18,204 bases of DNA from Armatimonadia bacterium (GCA_039683575.1 JBDKRC010000008.1:1-18204); one strand, 5' to 3'. Shown: positions 6,641 through 14,564, numbered from the stretch's first letter. Program-made: numbers and translations. Notes: a model not told the origin generated them from the sequence alone.

Positions 6641-6668
6641 TTGGCAGCGGCGAGAATGATTGTACAAT
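6641..6668 (+). promoter_or_regulatory. Putative sigma70 promoter for the DUF362 gene, overlapping a 10-bp palindrome
   Basis: TTGGCA (6641-6646), 16 nt, TACAAT (6663-6668) in the divergent intergenic region. ATTGTACAAT (6659-6668) is a perfect palindrome. Confidence 0.4.
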
Positions 6669-6731
6669 ATGCATAGTGCCGCTATTGTTCAGAGGTGGGC
6701 GCAGTTCCTTCCGCCCACGGAAGTGGAGACC

Positions 6732-7703
6732 ATGGATCGTCGTGACTTCCTGAAAAGCCTCGCCCTCGCCGGCCTCGGTACAACCCTCCTCGCCGGCTGC
6801 CGTTCAGGCGGGTCCGGTGGCGGTTCGGCTGCCGCGCAAGCCGGCGGCAAAGTCGGCAACAACCGCCTGGTGCCGGCCCCCGTCAACGGCGTTCATATCG
6901 CCGTGGCCCGCAACAAGGCCCCCGCCGAACTCGTTGCCGCGGCCCTCGCGGCCTTTGGCGGCATGTCGGCCTTCGTAAAGCCGGGCGACCGCGTGGTCAT
7001 CAAGCCCAACATCGCCTGGAGCCGTACCCCCGAGCAGGCCGCCTGCACCAGCCCCGAAGTCCTCACCGCGGTCATCAAAGCCTGCCAGGAAGCGCAGGCG
7101 GCGGAAGTCCTCGTCGCCGACCACACCTGCGACACCAGTTCCATCACCTTCGACCTCTCCGGCCTCGCCGCCGCCTGCAAAGACGCCGACGTGCCGCTGG
7201 TGGACTGGGGCAATGAGCAGCAGTACCGCGAGGTTGAGCTGGCTCGCGGCCAGAACCTGAAGACCGACCGCGTGCCGCTGGACCTCCTGGACTGCGACGC
7301 CTACATCAACCTGCCCACCCTTAAGCACCACGCGGCTACCACGATCACGCTCGCGCTCAAGAACCAGATGGGCTGCGTTTGGGATCGCGGCCGGTATCAT
7401 TCCACCCAGGGCGCCGCCGGGGGCAACAACCTCCACCGCAACATCGCCGACCTCGCCACTGCTTTGCGCCCGACGTTGAACATTCTTGATGCCACTCGCG
7501 CCCTCAAGACTAACGGGCCCAAAGGTCCGGGCCTCGTTGAGGAGCTCAATACCGTCTGCATCAGCCCGGACATCGTCGCGCTGGATGCCTATGGTGCGAG
7601 GCTTCTAGGGCACGATCCGGCTTCCATTCCGCATATCAAAATGGCCGCCGCCGACCAGATCGGGGAAATGCAGCCCGACGCCTCCTTGATTAGGGTGGTA
7701 TGA
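6732..7703 (+). CDS. DUF362 domain protein with Tat/lipoprotein signal
   Basis: Start at ATG 6732 after GGAG. Twin-arginine motif MDRRDFLK and lipobox LLAG-C. DUF362-type motifs: FVKPGDRVVIKPN, TSPEV, YINLPTLKHH, TLALKNQMG, RPTLNILDA, GPKGPG, DIVALDAYG. Confidence 0.88.
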   Translation: MDRRDFLKSLALAGLGTTLLAGCRSGGSGGGSAAAQAGGKVGNNRLVPAPVNGVHIAVARNKAPAELVAAALAAFGGMSAFVKPGDRVVIKPNIAWSRTPEQAACTSPEVLTAVIKACQEAQAAEVLVADHTCDTSSITFDLSGLAAACKDADVPLVDWGNEQQYREVELARGQNLKTDRVPLDLLDCDAYINLPTLKHHAATTITLALKNQMGCVWDRGRYHSTQGAAGGNNLHRNIADLATALRPTLNILDATRALKTNGPKGPGLVEELNTVCISPDIVALDAYGARLLGHDPASIPHIKMAAADQIGEMQPDASLIRVV

Positions 7704-7776
7704 GCCTCGATACAATAAGGAAATACGTTGCGGCTGTCGAATACTTAGCCAACAGCACGCAGGAAAGTGGATCGCC

Positions 7777-8181
7777 ATGACCGCTTCCGACCACCTTGAC
7801 CCACGAGTAGTGGAGTTCGTGGAGACCGTGGCCCAGACCATCGTCGGTCTGGATGTAGCGCTGTTCTTCCAGAATAACCCCCGTACGTTCGATACCCCCG
7901 CCGGTCTCGCCCTGCGCACCCATCGCGGCGTCAAGGAAGTCGCCGAGGTCCTTGAGCGCATGGCTGCCCATGGCATACTCGAAGCCTTCACCCGCGCCGA
8001 AGGCCGCTACACCTGCTATGCGTTGCCCAGGGATCCCAAGATCTGGAACCTGTTGTGCCTGCTCAGCGAAGCGTACCTCGACGACCTCAACAGCCGTAAA
8101 GAGATCATCAGAATCATTATCCGCCGTCAGGCTCAGCATACCGAGGCTGAAGGCACTGATTCCGGGGGAGAGAAGGTCTAA
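7777..8181 (+). CDS. Small winged helix-turn-helix-like protein, partner of the KaiC-family ATPase
   Basis: 134-aa ORF. LFFQNNPRTFDTPAGLALRTHRGVKEVAEVLERMAAHGILE...RYTCYAL fits a three-helix plus wing pattern. It ends 3 nt before the ATPase start. Confidence 0.7.
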   Translation: MTASDHLDPRVVEFVETVAQTIVGLDVALFFQNNPRTFDTPAGLALRTHRGVKEVAEVLERMAAHGILEAFTRAEGRYTCYALPRDPKIWNLLCLLSEAYLDDLNSRKEIIRIIIRRQAQHTEAEGTDSGGEKV

Positions 8182-8184
8182 CCA

Positions 8185-10824
8185 ATGGCCGAGCTGCTAC
8201 GGAGTGGAATACCGGGGCTGGATTGCCTGCTCGGTGGGGGAATCCGCCCGGGAGCCTGCCTGCTGCTAGAGGGCGTTCCCGGTGTCGGCAAAACCACCTT
8301 CGGCATGCAATTCGCCGCCTTCGGTGCCTCCACCAATGAACCCGCCATCATCGTCACTTTCGAGCAATTCCCCGAACAGATCTACAACGATGCCCTGAAC
8401 CTCGGCTGGGACTTGCGCTCGCTCGAGGACAAGGACCGCCTGCGCGTCGTCTGCACCTCACCCGACGTCTTTCTCGACCAGCTCAGCGACGTCGGCGGGA
8501 TGATGGATAGCCTCATCGCCGAGATCGGCGCGCGGCGGCTGATGGTGGACAGCGTGGCCCATCTGGCTCACATCGCCAGCGGCCCCGGCGAGTTGCGTCC
8601 GCTCGTCTACGGCATGCTCAATGGCATTCGCCGCGCCGGCCTCACCGCCATGATCACCAAGGAAGTCGAGTCGGCCTCCCCTGAGAACATTCCCTTCGAG
8701 GAATACCTCGTGGACACGGTCATCCGGCTGTCCTTCGAACTCCAGCACAGCCTCTACCGCCACCGCAACGTCGAGATCATCAAGTCCCGAGGTCAACATC
8801 ACTCCCACGGTCGCCACACCCTGGTCATTGACGGCTGCGGGGCCACGATCTACCCGCGCTACGAACCCAAGCGCCGCGAAATCAGCACCGAAGCCTGTGC
8901 CTCCAGCCGCGTCAGTACCGGCATCAGCGGCCTCGATGCCATGCTCGAAGGTGGGATAGGATCGGGCCATGCGACGCTTCTCGCCGGCAGCGCCGGTGTC
9001 GGCAAAACGACTTTCGCCCTGCAGTTCCTGGCCGCTGGCGCTCAGCGGGGCGAGCCGGGCATCCTTGTGACCTTCGAGGAGAAGCCCGACAAGCTCTGCG
9101 AGCTTGCTGCCGGCTTCGGCATAGATATCCGCAGCCTCCAGGAGCAGAAACTCCTCAGCATCCTCCACCGCTCTCCGCTGCACCTCTCGAGCGATCAACT
9201 GCTTTGCGAACTGCAGGAGGAAGTGAAGCAGCTTGGCGCCCGCCTCGTCGCCATCGACAGCCTTACTGACCTGACGATGAGCACCTACGAGCCCCGCCAG
9301 TTCCGCGAGACCGTCTTCATGATCAGCGACATGCTGCAGGAGGCGGGCGTGACCTCGTTGCTCACCGTGGAGGTCCCCGAACTCTTCGGCCAGACCTACG
9401 TCACTTCCGAGCACGTCTCGATCATCGTGGACGGCATCATCCTCATGAAGTACGTCGAGATGGAGAGCGAAATCCAGCGCGCCATCTCCGTGCTCAAAAT
9501 GCGCGGCTGCAACCATGACAAGGGCATCCATCGCTACACCATAGACAACAACGGCATCAACATCCGCGCCCGCTTTGAGGGTACCTCGGGCGTCATGGGC
9601 GGCAGCCCCATCCAGACGCCCGTCACCCTCTCGGTCCGTAGCTTCACCGAGTACGACGAAGCACTCAACAACGAACTGATGGAGCGCTTCTCGCAGCTCT
9701 ACCCGCACGTCAAACCGGTTTCCCTGACGATTCCCTACAACCCGGATGATGTGCGGGAGACGGTGCGGGGCGCCCTGGAGGCGAGTTCCACCAGTCTGAG
9801 CGTCGCTCCGCTATGTCTGTACTGGTTGCCGGAGGTCATTGAGCTCGGCAGGCTGCTCCCGCTCGACAACGTCATTCCTCCCCGCGAGACCAAGCTGCAT
9901 CTGCCGGACCTGCTGGACGCGGGCAAGGCGAACGGGCGTCTCTGGGCAGCCCCCGCCATGGCTCTGTGCGGCGTGATGCTCTACCGCAAGGACCTGCTGG
10001 AAGAGTACGGCTTCACTCACCCGCCCCGCACCTGGGACGAGCTGATCGAGCAGGCGCAGACCATTCTCAAGGGCGAGAAGGACCCCAACCTCATCGGCTG
10101 CCAGTTCCCAGCGTATCACTACGAGGGCCTCACAACCTCGTTCCTGCAGAATCTGTGGAGCAATGGCGGCGAGCTTCTGGTGGACGGCCAGCCGGCCCTG
10201 CAGACCGAGAACTCCTTGCAGGCCCTGAAGTACATGCGCAGCATGATCTTCGACCACGAGCTAAGCCCCCGGAACCTCACGAGCGCCGCGCACGGCCTCG
10301 AGCCTCAGTCTGACTTCATCGCCGGTCGCACGATCTTCCTGATCATGTTGCCGAGTGTCGCGCAGGCCTGCCAGAGCGAGGGCTCGCACATGCGTGGCAA
10401 GGTAGGGATTGCCCCGCATCCGATGGGACCTTTGGGCACCGAATCAATCACCTTCCTCGGTGGCTGGCACTACGGCATCCCGACAGGAGCGCGTTCCCCC
10501 GAGGCGGCAGGCAACTTCATCCGCTTCATGACCAGCTACGAGGTCCAGAGGGAACGCTCGCTGCGGGGTGGTCCGATGCCGACCATACCCAGTCTGTACT
10601 CGGATCCGGAGATCATCGCTTTCAACCCGGATTACCCGCTCCTCCAGCGCCTGCTCAAGACTGCGCGCAAGCGCCACGAGATTCCGCACTACAGCGAGAT
10701 CTCGCGGCTGATCCAGGCGCACCTCCACCCGGTCCTGACCGGCGACACGGAGCCCGAAGCGGCTCTCGCGCAACTCAGCGAAGAGATCAGCATCGTCCTC
10801 ACCGAGAAGCGCCCAGCGAACTAA
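8185..10824 (+). CDS. KaiC-family double RecA-type ATPase fused to a C-terminal sugar solute-binding (trehalose/maltose-type) domain
   Basis: 879 aa. Domain 1: SGIPGLD, Walker A GVPGVGKT (8272-8295), TFEQ, MVDS, EEYLVDTVI, KSRG. Domain 2: STGISGLD, Walker A GSAGVGKT (8986-9009), TFEE, AIDS, HVSIIVDGII, KMRG. From about residue 479 there is a family-1 SBP pattern: LYRKDLLEEYG..PPRTWDEL, YEGL, WSNGG, GKVGIAPHP, LGGWHYGI, FIRFMTS. No signal peptide or transmembrane helix is evident. Confidence 0.9.
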   Translation: MAELLRSGIPGLDCLLGGGIRPGACLLLEGVPGVGKTTFGMQFAAFGASTNEPAIIVTFEQFPEQIYNDALNLGWDLRSLEDKDRLRVVCTSPDVFLDQLSDVGGMMDSLIAEIGARRLMVDSVAHLAHIASGPGELRPLVYGMLNGIRRAGLTAMITKEVESASPENIPFEEYLVDTVIRLSFELQHSLYRHRNVEIIKSRGQHHSHGRHTLVIDGCGATIYPRYEPKRREISTEACASSRVSTGISGLDAMLEGGIGSGHATLLAGSAGVGKTTFALQFLAAGAQRGEPGILVTFEEKPDKLCELAAGFGIDIRSLQEQKLLSILHRSPLHLSSDQLLCELQEEVKQLGARLVAIDSLTDLTMSTYEPRQFRETVFMISDMLQEAGVTSLLTVEVPELFGQTYVTSEHVSIIVDGIILMKYVEMESEIQRAISVLKMRGCNHDKGIHRYTIDNNGINIRARFEGTSGVMGGSPIQTPVTLSVRSFTEYDEALNNELMERFSQLYPHVKPVSLTIPYNPDDVRETVRGALEASSTSLSVAPLCLYWLPEVIELGRLLPLDNVIPPRETKLHLPDLLDAGKANGRLWAAPAMALCGVMLYRKDLLEEYGFTHPPRTWDELIEQAQTILKGEKDPNLIGCQFPAYHYEGLTTSFLQNLWSNGGELLVDGQPALQTENSLQALKYMRSMIFDHELSPRNLTSAAHGLEPQSDFIAGRTIFLIMLPSVAQACQSEGSHMRGKVGIAPHPMGPLGTESITFLGGWHYGIPTGARSPEAAGNFIRFMTSYEVQRERSLRGGPMPTIPSLYSDPEIIAFNPDYPLLQRLLKTARKRHEIPHYSEISRLIQAHLHPVLTGDTEPEAALAQLSEEISIVLTEKRPAN

Positions 10825-10940
10825 CGGCCAGGCCCCGCCCGCCCTGCTGTCGCTGCTCGGAAGGGCCGAATGCCGACAGCTTCACCGTCGGCCTCCGGTT
10901 CGTGGCAATCCACCATACTAGTAACCGCAGACCGTCGTCA

Positions 10941-11021
10941 GGGCCGAAGGCCCGTCAGCCTCTAGCCGGGGGCGCAAGCCCCCGGTCGCAACGCCGCTCA
11001 CAACCAGAGCCCCGAAGGGGC
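10941..11021 (+). repeat. Three-hairpin REP/MITE-like extragenic element (copy A)
   Basis: GGGCC-GAA-GGCCC (10941-10953); TAG followed by CCGGGGGC-GCAA-GCCCCCGG (10966-10985); GCCCC-GAA-GGGGC (11009-11021). Same layout as 16151-16235 on the minus strand. Confidence 0.65.
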
Positions 11022-11130
11022 GGCAGCGCCGTTATCAACGACCCACACCGCCCGCCGTCTTCTCCGCCTGGCAGGAATACCCCCCACCAAAGACGAAGAC
11101 GCTCCCCAACACGCTGCACGGGAGACCCCA

Positions 11131-13455
11131 ATGCCACGCCATACCCTCCTCCTGCTCCTCACCCTCATCACCTTCGTCCCGCTATGCCATGCCGCCGACC
11201 AGCCGGTGAAGGCTGCCTTCATGTACTCTGGTTGGCCCAATGGGACGGCGTCCTTCAAGGACGAATTCGACCGCACCTTCGCCACCCTCGGCTGGCAGGT
11301 CACCAAGTTCGAGAACACCCAGGCCAAAGACCTCAGTGACCGCCTCAGCGAGTTCAACGTTGTTGTCGGCAGCAGTGTCAGCAACTACGCCAACCCGCAG
11401 GACTTCAAGCCCTTCGCCGACAAATGGCAGGCCTTTCTCGAAAACGGCGGCATCGTCCTGGCCACCGACGCCTCCTACGCTCCGATCAACGTCCAGTGGA
11501 TCGGTGGGATCAACCCTGCCTTCAGCACCTCCCCCGCGATCTGCAGCGCCCACTCCAAGCCTAGCGCCCAAACCGCGATCTCCAAATTCGCCGACGCGCC
11601 GCTGCTGACCGTCCCCGGCGACCTCCGCCCCGCCCTGCGCGCCAAGACCAACTGGTCCCACCTCGGGACCCTCGGCTCCGGCTGGACCACCGCCGTCACC
11701 TGCTATGATGACAAGCCGGTGCTGGTCTACCGCCCGGTGGGTAAGGGCCTGCTGATCGTGACCAACTACTTCGGCCTGAGAGGCGATAGCGAGATTGCCC
11801 GCGGCCTGCTCCAAAACGCCCTCACGATGACTCGCCTGCGCGCCCGCGGCCTGGAGTTGACTGCCCTCGAAGCGCAGGAGGGGCGTCTGACCGGCAACCA
11901 GCTCACGGTCCGCCTGAAGAACGTTCAGGACCAGCCCGCCAGCGTCTCGGCTCGGCTGGCGCTCAATCTCGGCGACAAGAAGCTCGAGACGTCCGCCGCT
12001 GCGACCGTCCAGCCCGGCGCTGAGGCTGTGCTGCCCCTTAAGTATGATCTACCCGCCCGCGGCCAGTGGGCCGGCACCCTCGATCTGCTTCAGGGGGACC
12101 AACTCGCCCTGTCGAGTAAGCACGAGATCATCGTTCCTGAACTGATTGCGATCCGGCTTCCCTCGCGCCACCAGTATGTCCATCGTCCTCTGCTCCGTGT
12201 GGGCGTTACCCTCGCCCCCGAACTGGGCGAGCGCCTCGCTGGCCTCACCGTGCGCCTGAGCCTCGGCAAGGGCTCACCGCTCATTGTGAAGCCGACGGAA
12301 CTCGACTCGCAGGCGCAACTCTCGCTCGACAAGCTTCCGCCGGGCGACTACACCCTGACCGCGACGCTGCTCGAAAACCAGAAGCAAGTTGCCAGCGCCG
12401 GGGCGCCCTTCATCATCCACCCGCGGCCACCCATCACCTATGACCCGAACAACATCACGTACGTGAACGGCAAGCCCTTCTTCCCGCTGGGCATGTACCA
12501 GGTCGGCTGGAGCCGCACGAAGGAGCAGAAGATCGCTGCGTTGCAGGAAATGGCCGCCGCGGGGTTCAACTGCGCGCACATGAGCTGCACGAGCCTCGAC
12601 GACTTCCAGCCCGTGCTCGACGAGGCCCAGCGCCTCGGCATGATGCTCCTGATCGAGGGCCTCGGGGCCAACTACGCCACCGTCCACCGCTTCAAGAACC
12701 ATCCGGCCGTACTCGGCTGGAATTCCGGTGACGAGCCCGACTGCAGCAACACCCCGCCGGAGGAGGTCGGACGCACCGTTGAGGCCCTCCGCGACGCCGA
12801 CTGGTCCCGCCTCATCTACACCACCGTCGCCAGCCCGGACGCCCTCGCCCGCTATGCGCCCTATGCCGACGTTTTCACCAATGACCCCTATCCCGTCACC
12901 GCCAAAAACACCAACACCATCGCCGTAGCCCGCCAGACCGCGCGCGCTCGCGAATCTGTGGCCGGGGCCAAGCCGCTTTGGATGGTGCCCCAGTGCTTCG
13001 GCTATGCCGATGGTCACTGGGCGGTGCCCACACCCGCGCAGGAACGCAGCATGACCTACCAGACGGTCATCGAGGGCGCTCGCGGTCTGGTTTGGTATAC
13101 CTTCGACGACAAAAGCTTCATGGTCCTCGACCACCCTGAGCTATGGGCGATGATGAAGCAGCTTGTGACCGAACTGAAGGCCCTCACGCCCGTGCTGCTG
13201 CAGCCGGAGGGCAAGGTCAAGCGCTTCACGGCCGGTCCCGAGGACGTGATCCGCGCGGCCGCCATCGGCGACACCATAATGGCCGCCCACACCAACGACA
13301 AAGACCTCGGCCCCCAGGAGTTGACCATCCCCGGCCTCAAGGGCAAAGCCCAGGCCGAGGTGCTGTTTGAGGACCGGACAGTGAGCCTGACCGACGGCAA
13401 GCTGACGGACAATTTCGCGCCATATGCGGTGCATGTATACAGGGTGAAGCAGTAA
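11131..13455 (+). CDS. Secreted multidomain glycoside hydrolase-like protein (C-terminal TIM barrel paralogous to the 160-2988 protein)
   Basis: 774 aa with GGAG upstream and a signal peptide (MPRHTLLLLLTLITFVPLCHA-A). N-terminal class I glutamine amidotransferase-like segment (FLENGGIVLATD...GKGLLIVT). Barrel motifs: VNGKPFFPLGMY, AGFNCAH, HPAVLGWNSGDEPD, DPYP, PLWMVPQCFG, GARGLVWY. The tail AEVLFEDRTVSLTDGKLTDNFAPYAVHVYR resembles AEVVFENRQVRVTDGVLTDTIEPFGTRVYR in the 160-2988 protein. Confidence 0.8.
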   Translation: MPRHTLLLLLTLITFVPLCHAADQPVKAAFMYSGWPNGTASFKDEFDRTFATLGWQVTKFENTQAKDLSDRLSEFNVVVGSSVSNYANPQDFKPFADKWQAFLENGGIVLATDASYAPINVQWIGGINPAFSTSPAICSAHSKPSAQTAISKFADAPLLTVPGDLRPALRAKTNWSHLGTLGSGWTTAVTCYDDKPVLVYRPVGKGLLIVTNYFGLRGDSEIARGLLQNALTMTRLRARGLELTALEAQEGRLTGNQLTVRLKNVQDQPASVSARLALNLGDKKLETSAAATVQPGAEAVLPLKYDLPARGQWAGTLDLLQGDQLALSSKHEIIVPELIAIRLPSRHQYVHRPLLRVGVTLAPELGERLAGLTVRLSLGKGSPLIVKPTELDSQAQLSLDKLPPGDYTLTATLLENQKQVASAGAPFIIHPRPPITYDPNNITYVNGKPFFPLGMYQVGWSRTKEQKIAALQEMAAAGFNCAHMSCTSLDDFQPVLDEAQRLGMMLLIEGLGANYATVHRFKNHPAVLGWNSGDEPDCSNTPPEEVGRTVEALRDADWSRLIYTTVASPDALARYAPYADVFTNDPYPVTAKNTNTIAVARQTARARESVAGAKPLWMVPQCFGYADGHWAVPTPAQERSMTYQTVIEGARGLVWYTFDDKSFMVLDHPELWAMMKQLVTELKALTPVLLQPEGKVKRFTAGPEDVIRAAAIGDTIMAAHTNDKDLGPQELTIPGLKGKAQAEVLFEDRTVSLTDGKLTDNFAPYAVHVYRVKQ

Positions 13456-13457
13456 CC

Positions 13458-14564
13458 ATGGATTTCACTCAGATCAAGTACCAGGACGCAGCAACGAAGA
13501 CCTACATCGGCAGCCCCAGCCTCCTGCGGCTGGACAATGGCGACCTGCTGGCCACCCATGACTACTTCGGCCCCGGCTGCCCCCGCAACCTCGAGAACGA
13601 AGAGCACTTGACGTCCGTGTACCGCTCCAGCGACGATGGCGCGACATGGGTGAACGTCACCCATGTCGCCGGGCAGTATTGGAGCAACCTCTTCGCTCAC
13701 GGCGGCGCTGTGTGGCTCCTGGGGTGCTCCCAGCAGTTTGGCTCCATCGTCATCCGCCGCAGCGACGACGGCGGCAACACGTGGACCCATGCGCGGGACG
13801 AGCAGAGCGGATGGCTGTTCCGTGGCGGCTACTACCACGAGAATCCGAACTACCACTGCGCTCCGATGCCGGTCTTGAAAAAGGACGGCTGGCTCTACCG
13901 TGCCTTCGAGGACTGCCGCGACGCCCGCTGGGGAACGGGCTTCCAATCGCTGGTAATAGCCGCGCCGGAAGACGCCGACCTGCTTGAAGCCAGGAACTGG
14001 ATCATGAGCAACAAGCTGCCCTTCGACACGGCCTGGCTGCCGTCAGATTGGCCGCAGCTAATGGCCCCCGGCTACCTCGAAGGAAACGTCGTAGAGACCG
14101 CTGAGGGCGGCCTGGTGAACATTCTGCGGTGCAACTCCACCCCCGTAGTGGACAAGGCGGTCATACTGCGGATTACTCACGAGGGGGAGACACTGAAGCA
14201 GGAGTTCGACAGCCTCATCGACTTCCCGGGTGGGATGACGAAATTCACAATCCGCCGCCATCCTCAAACAGGAAAGTACCTCACGCTGGCGAATGGGAAC
14301 ACGGACCCGCAATACCCCAGCCAGCGCAATATACTGTCGTTGTACGAGTCAGATAATCTGCGAGAATGGCGGCATGTGAAGACCCTGATCGAGGACGATT
14401 CGCCGCTGCCGTGGGAGGAAGCGGTGAGGCTGGTCGGGTTCCAGTACGTGGACTGGCAGTTCGATGGCGAGGGCATAGTCTACGCGGTGCGGGTGGCTTA
14501 CGACGGGGCCCACAACTTCCATGATGCCAACCGGCTGACGTTTCACCGCATTGATCGTCTTTAG
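13458..14564 (+). CDS. BNR/Asp-box repeat beta-propeller protein (sialidase family-like), cytoplasmic
   Basis: 368 aa starting 2 nt after the upstream stop. Asp-box repeats SSDDGATW, RSDDGGNTW and degenerate ESDNLREW. YIGSPSL sits where sialidases have the FRIP-type motif, and FQYVDW lies near the C-terminus. No signal peptide. Confidence 0.8.
   Translation: MDFTQIKYQDAATKTYIGSPSLLRLDNGDLLATHDYFGPGCPRNLENEEHLTSVYRSSDDGATWVNVTHVAGQYWSNLFAHGGAVWLLGCSQQFGSIVIRRSDDGGNTWTHARDEQSGWLFRGGYYHENPNYHCAPMPVLKKDGWLYRAFEDCRDARWGTGFQSLVIAAPEDADLLEARNWIMSNKLPFDTAWLPSDWPQLMAPGYLEGNVVETAEGGLVNILRCNSTPVVDKAVILRITHEGETLKQEFDSLIDFPGGMTKFTIRRHPQTGKYLTLANGNTDPQYPSQRNILSLYESDNLREWRHVKTLIEDDSPLPWEEAVRLVGFQYVDWQFDGEGIVYAVRVAYDGAHNFHDANRLTFHRIDRL

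Follow-up and report, generated by a model that had tools for sequence, protein, structure and literature searches.

A KaiC-family ATPase joined to a remodelled solute-binding fold and encoded behind a winged-helix protein in Armatimonadia: a possible metabolite-gated switch

The KaiB-like fold has two settings, a free protein encoded beside kaiC and the N-terminal domain of SasA. KaiC homologues are common beyond the cyanobacteria, and their inputs and outputs are mostly obscure; Makarova, Galperin and Koonin reportedly proposed in a 2017 mBio paper that archaeal KaiC-like ATPases act as signal-transduction hubs with varied input and output domains. Here, we describe a two-gene cassette, at positions 7,777 to 10,824 of an 18,204-nucleotide stretch of DNA from an Armatimonadia bacterium (GCA_039683575.1 JBDKRC010000008.1:1-18204), which may offer an input and an output together in compact form. 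This stretch, hereafter the window, is contig C8 in its entirety, from a genome of 6.2 Mb that is split into 352 contigs and is 96% complete. Several described systems come close to it. SasA is a histidine kinase signalling to a response regulator, a role summarised in the available part of one study, which also describes Pseudomonas KaiC-like genes adjoining histidine kinases and single-domain response regulators (bioRxiv 10.1101/2022.01.26.477890). KaiA holds the A-loop of KaiC exposed, which leads to autokinase activity, and in Rhodobacter KaiC a C-terminal extension from the A-loop keeps the loop exposed without KaiA and stabilises the oligomer, according to the accessible portion of a second study (bioRxiv 10.1101/2022.11.28.518275).

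The cassette encodes P0002, a small winged-helix protein, followed by P0001, in which two KaiC domains run into a domain of the solute-binding protein (SBP) fold. We tentatively favour the reading that the pair forms a metabolite-gated cytoplasmic KaiC switch, with a built-in input domain and a readout via the winged-helix protein, a reading that we regard as possible and somewhat short of probable. The parts of the cassette are as follows.

7704-7776, + strand: intergenic region of 73 bp between a DUF362 gene and the small gene
7777-8181, + strand: P0002, winged-helix protein of 134 amino acids (aa), directly upstream of the fusion; open reading frame (ORF) call and predicted fold
8164-8176, + strand: purine-rich Shine-Dalgarno-like run within the 3' end of the small gene, 8-20 nt ahead of the fusion ATG
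8185-10824, + strand: P0001, the fusion ORF, 879 aa, no internal stop
8185-8874, + strand: KaiC CI domain, residues 1-230; Pfam and alignments
8905-9582, + strand: KaiC CII domain, residues 241-466; Pfam and alignments
9583-9627, + strand: linker, residues 467-481, aligning with the KaiC A-loop region; low model confidence
9628-10800, + strand: SBP_bac_1-fold domain with remodelled pocket, residues 482-872; Pfam and alignments
10801-10824, + strand: disordered C-terminal tail and stop codon; predicted local distance difference test (pLDDT) below 50 at residues 875-879

The stop codon of the small gene (TAA, 8179-8181) and the ATG of the fusion at 8185 leave a spacer of 3 nt, so that coordinates and predicted fold agree with the initial annotation, which had placed a 134-aa winged-helix gene 3 nt upstream of an 879-aa reading frame. 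Longest-ORF calls at 17 related loci give a 4-nt overlap of small gene and fusion in seven of them. The description of that frame as two KaiC domains plus an SBP domain likewise stands: Pfam KaiC (PF06745) matches two tandem stretches (337.7 bits against a cut-off of 26.6, E 3.9e-101), SBP_bac_1 (PF01547) matches residues 487-788 (83.6 bits against 26) and SBP_bac_8 scores 74.1 against 27. The fusion is a real and shared feature. Among 5.8 billion proteins, we found 71 full-length relatives from many sources (868-889 aa, 47-94% identity, identical Pfam set) and four partial ones, labelled at source either as 'extracellular solute-binding protein' or as 'circadian clock protein KaiC', and the named records belong to Armatimonadota. 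The fused form also occurs in 30 further genomes of the window's order. A DNA contig of run X1 (4949 nt, 69 differences) covers 7500-10426 and hence both junctions, and the metatranscriptome contig X3 (record 13) crosses the KaiC/SBP junction at 9543-9923 with no differences. Further RNA-library pieces are identical to both genes, DNA carry-over being possible in those libraries, and the RNA-library contigs leave gaps in coverage, record 10 ending just 16 nt beyond the junction of small gene and fusion. Since relatives and independent contigs carry the fusion, an assembly chimera or a stop codon lost in this one genome has a negligible chance of explaining it. The initial annotation had proposed to look for the same architecture and winged-helix linkage in other genomes, and for sequence support across the domain junction; both are thereby in hand, as the small gene immediately precedes the fusion in 25 of 25 loci, of which at least four repeat a contig already counted, and in 18 of 18 wider loci. 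Beyond 10813, the contigs of DNA run X1 and RNA-library run X2 no longer follow the window and share one loose end, so that a co-occurring strain differs in the last codons and in the downstream neighbour. For two fusion orthologues (G250:C6 and G243:C125) the search rows report one TAG read through in frame; in G250 it probably lies outside the gene, since the ORF call at that locus (L060) is intact at 874 aa.

In a sample of 401 genomes drawn evenly from the phylum, the fused form was, among the matches listed, confined to the window's order, and the rows outside the order hold the KaiC part alone, at 28-45% identity and ending near residue 480-508. By family (our labels f1 to f5), orthologues of the fusion were matched in 10/11 genomes of f1, 4/4 of f2, 13/13 of f4, 2/2 of f5 and 2/11 of f3, one of the f3 matches (G113) being unfused. 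In a quick, midpoint-rooted maximum-likelihood tree the 72 fused KaiC parts form one clade, with a support of 97 in the SH-aLRT (Shimodaira-Hasegawa-like approximate likelihood-ratio test), and the G113 protein nests inside that clade (clade support 97, subclade 100). This protein is 477 aa long, ends within the linker and retains the small gene, and it reads as a secondary loss of the SBP part. Across the fusions, the mean identities of CI, CII and the SBP domain are equal at 58-59% (SBP domain 58.6%), and that of the linker is 45%.

The model of P0001 has a pLDDT of 87.9; Foldseek aligns it with KaiC structures at E 9.5e-46, with a template-modelling (TM) score of 0.8 on the KaiC chain, and the sequence match to solved KaiC chains reaches E 2.9e-74 at about 30% identity, the N-terminus of P0001 aligning at residue 13-21 of those chains. 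In the genome search, both KaiC domains of P0001 also lie above the cut-off. In CI, the Walker A pair K36/T37, E60 and the Walker B residue D122 are invariant in the 72 aligned sequences, 57 of which have Q and 15 E at residue 61; in CII, the invariant residues are K274/T275, E299 and D358, and 69 of the 72 sequences have E298. The catalytic set is thus complete in CII and almost complete in CI. Ser412 (codon 9418-9420) is invariant (72/72) and aligns with KaiC Ser431, and the position equivalent to Thr432 is I in 61, V in 10 and M in one, so that the Ser/Thr phosphosite pair is not kept; the cyanobacterial numbers given here to catalytic and phosphosite positions are those that we take to apply. 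As the catalytic residues and Ser412 are kept, the KaiC part of P0001 very likely hydrolyses ATP, and it may phosphorylate one serine. The NCBIfam circadian KaiC equivalogs (NF006799, TIGR02655) match residues 5-482 below their cut-offs (320 versus 408; 232.5 versus 546.25), and by these models P0001 is outside the circadian KaiC equivalog. The genome, within its 96% completeness, has no second double-domain KaiC and no Pfam match for KaiA or KaiB (PF07689), and among the 12 window ORFs scanned there is no permease, KaiA or KaiB, as the initial annotation had said of the window. In PADLOC, a search for anti-phage defence systems, the only match is a P-loop-level one of residues 260-352 to mad8 (E 1e-8), with none for P0002. 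These observations also bear on whether the cassette keeps time, as an hourglass or oscillator whose slow cycle of KaiC phosphorylation is reset by metabolite input. In favour of this, P0001 keeps the KaiC fold and the Ser431 equivalent, and the available parts of two studies discuss KaiC homologues free of KaiB and KaiA with hourglass behaviour (bioRxiv 10.1101/2022.01.26.477890, 10.1101/2022.11.28.518275); set against this, KaiA and KaiB have no match in the genome, one phosphosite of the pair survives and the equivalog scores fall short, and we consider a timer very improbable.

Residues 460-480 of P0001 align with KaiC 480-499, which we take to be the A-loop region in cyanobacterial numbering, and directly after it the SBP fold opens with a strand that begins at residue 482 (LSVRSF). 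By this alignment, the SBP domain starts exactly at the KaiC A-loop, where KaiA acts on cyanobacterial KaiC. The linker is the lowest-confidence part of the model, with pLDDT blocks of 60 and 55, and the least conserved part of the protein. The domain that follows is cytoplasmic: Kyte-Doolittle means over 19 residues of P0001 peak at 1.54, within a core strand of the SBP fold, and its N-terminus lines up with the starts of KaiC chains, so that it has no signal peptide or membrane helix, in keeping with the location given in the initial annotation. Signal or lipobox-like sequences stand at the start of the free homologues of the domain and are missing from the fusion domain itself. These nearest free SBPs are 28-38% identical to it; the higher-scoring short matches are fragments on short contigs.

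The nearest solved relatives of the domain are TmMBP3 (6dtq, E 1.1e-54), TMBP (1eu8, E 2.8e-52) and TtMBP (6j9w, E 6.8e-47), which bind alpha-linked disaccharides, and the pocket residues of the alpha-glycoside group are given, in Athe_2310 numbering, as D69, F119, W243, G278/G279 and R351 in the accessible part of the source (PMC12096829). We mapped these numbers onto the fusions ourselves from printed alignments, and judged the pocket from alignments, not from a three-dimensional model, comparing the 102 nearest free SBPs with 72 fusion proteins. The Asp position is D in all 102 free SBPs versus C in 70 of 72 fusions, and the Trp position is W in 102/102 versus L in 72/72. Two positions beyond this Trp, 100 of 102 free SBPs have Y where the fusions have S, N, T or H; the next aromatic position (W, Y or F in 102/102) is L, A or M in the fusions, and the Phe/Tyr position is I, L or M. 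New constants have appeared in turn, namely Tyr546, gained in 72/72 fusions where free SBPs have I, A or V, and Asn495, invariant in the fusions and mostly Trp in free SBPs. W547, R601, D603, Y646, E647, the Gly-Gly pair, W761 and R830 are retained in both groups. Of the residues that define the alpha-glycoside subgroup, Asp, Phe/Tyr and Trp are therefore lost and Gly-Gly and Arg retained, which leaves the domain outside it. Judged from these alignments, the pocket is rebuilt rather than decayed, and, because residues invariant in free SBPs are replaced, the ligand is probably not maltose or trehalose. The label 'sugar-binding' in the initial annotation accordingly has to be withdrawn in part: the fold is that of an alpha-glycoside SBP, but with the Asp, Trp, Tyr and second Trp replaced in 70-72 of 72 fusions a sugar of the usual type is unlikely. 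Our reading is that specificity may have switched to some cytoplasmic ligand, the main rival being a loss of ligand binding.

In that rival, the SBP domain would bind nothing and serve as a structural cap, keeping the A-loop permanently extended or lending stability to the hexamer. The KaiC part would be constitutively kinase-active, as Rhodobacter KaiC is through its C-terminal coiled coil, and regulation would fall to ATP/ADP or to the small protein alone. The loss of sugar contacts universal in the 102 nearest free SBPs, the join at the A-loop and the survival of the G113 lineage without the domain all agree with it, and the Rhodobacter C-terminal extension, which exposes the A-loop and stabilises the oligomer, is a precedent in the part of that study available (bioRxiv 10.1101/2022.11.28.518275). 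It accounts less well for replacements that are themselves conserved (C in 70/72, L in 72/72), for the new invariant Tyr546 and Asn495, or for hinge and cleft residues that are still invariant (W547, R601, D603, Y646, E647, W761, R830); moreover, the SBP domain is as conserved as the ATPase domains, where a mere spacer would drift more. We therefore think a bare cap unlikely, and keep to the metabolite-gated switch.

P0002 itself matches nothing in Pfam or NCBIfam at cut-off; among 45 members of its family, matches below cut-off are to HVO_A0114 in 28, to DnaD_N in 25 and to MarR_2 in 11. Its AlphaFold2 model (pLDDT 90.4) is a winged helix of the MarR/ArsR type with N- and C-terminal helices; Foldseek returns Rv0880, PefR and MarR at E 4.6e-4 to 1e-3 with TM about 0.5, and VIA gives CzrA at Z 9.0, rated middling by the tool, and MarR-like chains at Z 8-8.7. 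According to the model, P0002 shares the winged-helix fold with flanking dimerisation helices, a fold that alone shows no function. Close relatives at 50% identity or more number 93, the named records being Armatimonadota. A profile of the family found 217 representatives at E <= 0.001 and matches 93 of the 401 phylum genomes. Aligned members have a motif in common in the core of helices 2-3 (L-D/E-x-x-x-F/Y ... N-P ... D/E-T/S ... G-x-A) and differ in the putative recognition helix.

A comparison of coordinates placed a P0002-like ORF immediately before an unfused KaiC match in 22 genomes, at 24 places in all (G024:C11, G008:C11, G038:C1, G092:C1, G094:C400 and G397:C2 among them), and six of the eight long profile matches scanned were histidine kinases with this domain as their N-terminal part, followed in some by an intervening PAS domain. 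In the window's own genome, contig C150 encodes such a kinase of 373 aa (P0002-like N-terminus at E 3.3e-11, then HisKA and HATPase_c), followed by the gene of a single-domain response regulator; kinases with a P0002-like N-terminus are Pfam-confirmed at G000:C150, G397:C2 and G092:C2. All 28 genomes with a kinase-sized match (at least 328 aa; 3 Pfam-confirmed) also have KaiC, versus 186 of the 401, the genomes being kin and so not independent. The fused form is, by these distributions, a conserved and order-restricted elaboration of a wider module made of a winged-helix partner plus a KaiC homologue. Several observations on the wider family stand apart. One locus (L069, G397:C2:175000-182500) carries, all in one direction, two tandem P0002-like ORFs, an unfused KaiC and a P0002-headed kinase, together with a 447-aa protein without Pfam match, and is the most complete version of the module seen. 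The kinase and regulator on C150 (L063, 692-6680) are flanked by right-handed beta-helix proteins (NosD/pectate-lyase-like) of 1039 and 358 aa. The profile also matches the 5191-aa P0357 in three stretches and the N-terminus of the 836-aa DUF7530 protein P0391. An Atlas search with P0002 returned unnamed clusters, some with a minority MarR_2 label, commonest in Chloroflexota or Planctomycetota, which we treat as a lead only.

P0002 might simply be an ordinary MarR/ArsR-type repressor of its operon and of a neighbouring glycosidase gene, with the KaiC-SBP protein as co-transcribed cargo or acting elsewhere. A GH2 glycosidase gene (900-970 aa) lies divergently and adjoining the small gene in 13 of 17 related loci, an arrangement typical of such regulators; the gaps are 29-238 bp in 11 loci, and in two the longest-ORF call runs into the small gene. 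In two more loci the GH2 gene is 3.7-4.0 kb upstream, and L057 and L059 lack it. The assignment to GH2 was by Pfam for two genes and by BLAST clustering for the others. The window has no GH2 gene, the orthologue in its genome being split across the ends of contigs C130 and C166, and no GH2 gene was found near the small gene in the fusion-less loci. The MarR/ArsR-type fold, the sub-threshold MarR_2 matches in 11 of 45 members (best E 9.4e-4), the invariant basic residues R47, R50, R61 and R73 and the persistence of the small gene in ten genomes without a KaiC match all speak for a repressor. Yet the same domain heads histidine kinases, an odd place for DNA binding, and its relatives are paired with KaiC homologues at the 24 places mentioned above, the spacing to the fusion being 3 nt or a 4-nt overlap; the upstream regions share no conserved palindrome, conservation of the recognition helix is low, and the protein carries a net acidic charge. 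An ordinary repressor is, in our judgement, distinctly unlikely. Since the family precedes unfused KaiC and heads kinases, a KaiC-docking module is at least as likely as a plain DNA-binding output, and the proposal in the initial annotation that the winged-helix protein is the output survives in modified form: the tight linkage is upheld and an output role is possible, but the placement of the family points at least as much to KaiC docking.

Taking these results together, the switch that we favour would work as follows. The fusion would assemble into a hexamer whose CII face carries the six SBP-fold domains; these would open or close on binding some small molecule of the cytoplasm other than an alpha-glucoside disaccharide; and their movement, passed on via the A-loop linker, would shift CII between autokinase and autophosphatase/ATPase states, the SBP domain thus acting in cis as KaiA does in trans. 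The states of Ser412 and of the rings would then set whether the winged-helix protein is bound. From there, the output might follow either of two routes: the winged-helix protein could be released or captured as a regulator, with the divergent GH2 gene as a candidate target, or, in genomes having them, the P0002-headed histidine kinase and its single-domain response regulator could carry the signal. A wider version of this proposal, which we regard as rather unlikely, holds that the winged-helix family is a reader of KaiC state, analogous to KaiB and SasA as adaptor and as kinase dock and perhaps so in other phyla, that the SBP domain is a metabolite-dependent KaiA in cis, and that the whole is a switch or hourglass controlling glycan use.

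A number of points weigh against this reading. The steps from ligand to A-loop, Ser412 and partner binding are all inferred, and the domain, having lost the sugar contacts of its family, could also be one that binds no ligand. The G113 lineage gets by with KaiC and the small gene after losing the SBP part, which is thus dispensable there, and the placement of G113 depends on a quick tree with a midpoint root. The small protein is acidic (isoelectric point 5.55), its recognition helix is the least conserved of its helices, and no k-mer or palindrome is common to the 18 upstream regions compared. A KaiC match (E <= 1e-30) is missing in 10 of the 93 genomes with the small protein (eight of f3, including all five of genus g8, and G342 and G357), and no KaiC lies near the small gene in four such loci (G027, G080, G122, G342); KaiC is thus not required for the small protein to work. 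The kinase form is present in 5 of 11 f1 and 1 of 13 f4 genomes, so that the kinase cannot be the general output of the fused form, and it adjoins KaiC in one locus only of those seen. A complex prediction for residues 1-872 of the fusion with residues 1-126 of P0002, neutral on this point, scored 0.24 against a mark of 0.32, in a comparison run without controls.

The carbohydrate-enzyme neighbourhood of the window (GH42-like, DUF362, BNR-like) had been seen in the initial annotation as a fitting context; it is not conserved with the cassette, none of the window neighbours being kept beside it across 25 loci. The neighbours with coordinates are the following.

160-2988, - strand: unannotatable ORF, 942 aa
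2989-6633, - strand: GH42-like gene, 1214 aa, with weak GH42 and GH42M matches in the middle and C-terminal parts
6660-7703: DUF362 gene
11131-13455, + strand: unannotatable ORF, 774 aa

Further neighbours are a BNR-like ORF, a DegT-type aminotransferase gene and a xylose-isomerase-like TIM-barrel gene. The ORFs of 942 and 774 aa have no Pfam match and, together with the 1214-aa ORF, may encode novel glycan-active proteins. On the + strand, no sigma-70-like promoter was matched upstream of the small gene (7704-7776), and a promoter and terminator scan of 7500-11300 yielded nothing on that strand beyond shuffled expectation; the related upstream regions hold only AT-rich imperfect repeats, in subsets of close relatives. 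The guanine-cytosine (GC) skew flips at about 13500-14500, from about -0.1 to -0.2 to +0.15 to +0.29, with GC content dipping to 0.575.

Because the input domain is joined to the loop that sets the balance of kinase and phosphatase, a single protein and a ligand screen would suffice for a direct test of the proposed allosteric route. The P0002 domain family would tie KaiC homologues to two-component kinases without KaiB, and a family-1 SBP fold inside the cell with a rebuilt pocket would be an unusual recruitment of a sensor and a possible scaffold for biosensors. Nature has supplied a control as well, since one lineage lost the binding domain and others lost the KaiC gene. The architecture is undescribed in the literature searched on KaiC homologues, which did not cover supplements or the main archaeal KaiC survey, and within that literature the earlier statement that it is uncharacterised holds. 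The forms treated in 2017 by Makarova and colleagues are reportedly mostly single-domain archaeal ones.

Among the systems closest to the cassette, TmMBP3, TMBP and TtMBP have the fold and many family motifs in common with the fusion domain; they are secreted or lipid-anchored partners of ATP-binding cassette (ABC) permeases that bind maltose or trehalose, whereas the fusion domain has no signal peptide or permease and has lost the Asp, Phe/Tyr and Trp. With cyanobacterial KaiC (1tf7, 2gbl, 7dy1, 8zn5), the fusion shares two RecA-like domains, Walker A and B, the serine at the Ser431 position and the catalytic Glu pair, complete in CII and represented by its first residue in CI. It differs in having Ile or Val for Thr432 and Glu-Gln in CI in 57 of 72 sequences, in a tail region (A-loop and KaiA binding) replaced by a 400-residue domain, and in a genome without a KaiA or KaiB match. 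The Pseudomonas KaiC-like systems resemble it in being KaiB-less, with a two-component output and a role in stress and physiology rather than in a clock, and the available part of their description mentions neither an SBP fusion nor a winged-helix partner (bioRxiv 10.1101/2022.01.26.477890). Rhodobacter sphaeroides KaiC (8dba) is, on the evidence of the accessible portion of its study, likewise KaiA-less, with a C-terminal extension from the A-loop that governs autophosphorylation, but that extension is a coiled coil of about 50 residues joining two hexamers, and KaiB is present (bioRxiv 10.1101/2022.11.28.518275); the extension of the fusion is a globular, two-lobed binding-protein fold in a genome without a KaiB match. 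The last comparison is with KaiB and SasA, where again a small domain family occurs both free beside kaiC and at the head of histidine kinases. P0002 is a winged helix where theirs is a thioredoxin-like fold, its binding to KaiC is putative, and, unlike SasA, the P0002-headed kinase is missing from most genomes with a fused KaiC; by analogy, nevertheless, the P0002 family resembles the logic of KaiB and SasA carried out on another fold.

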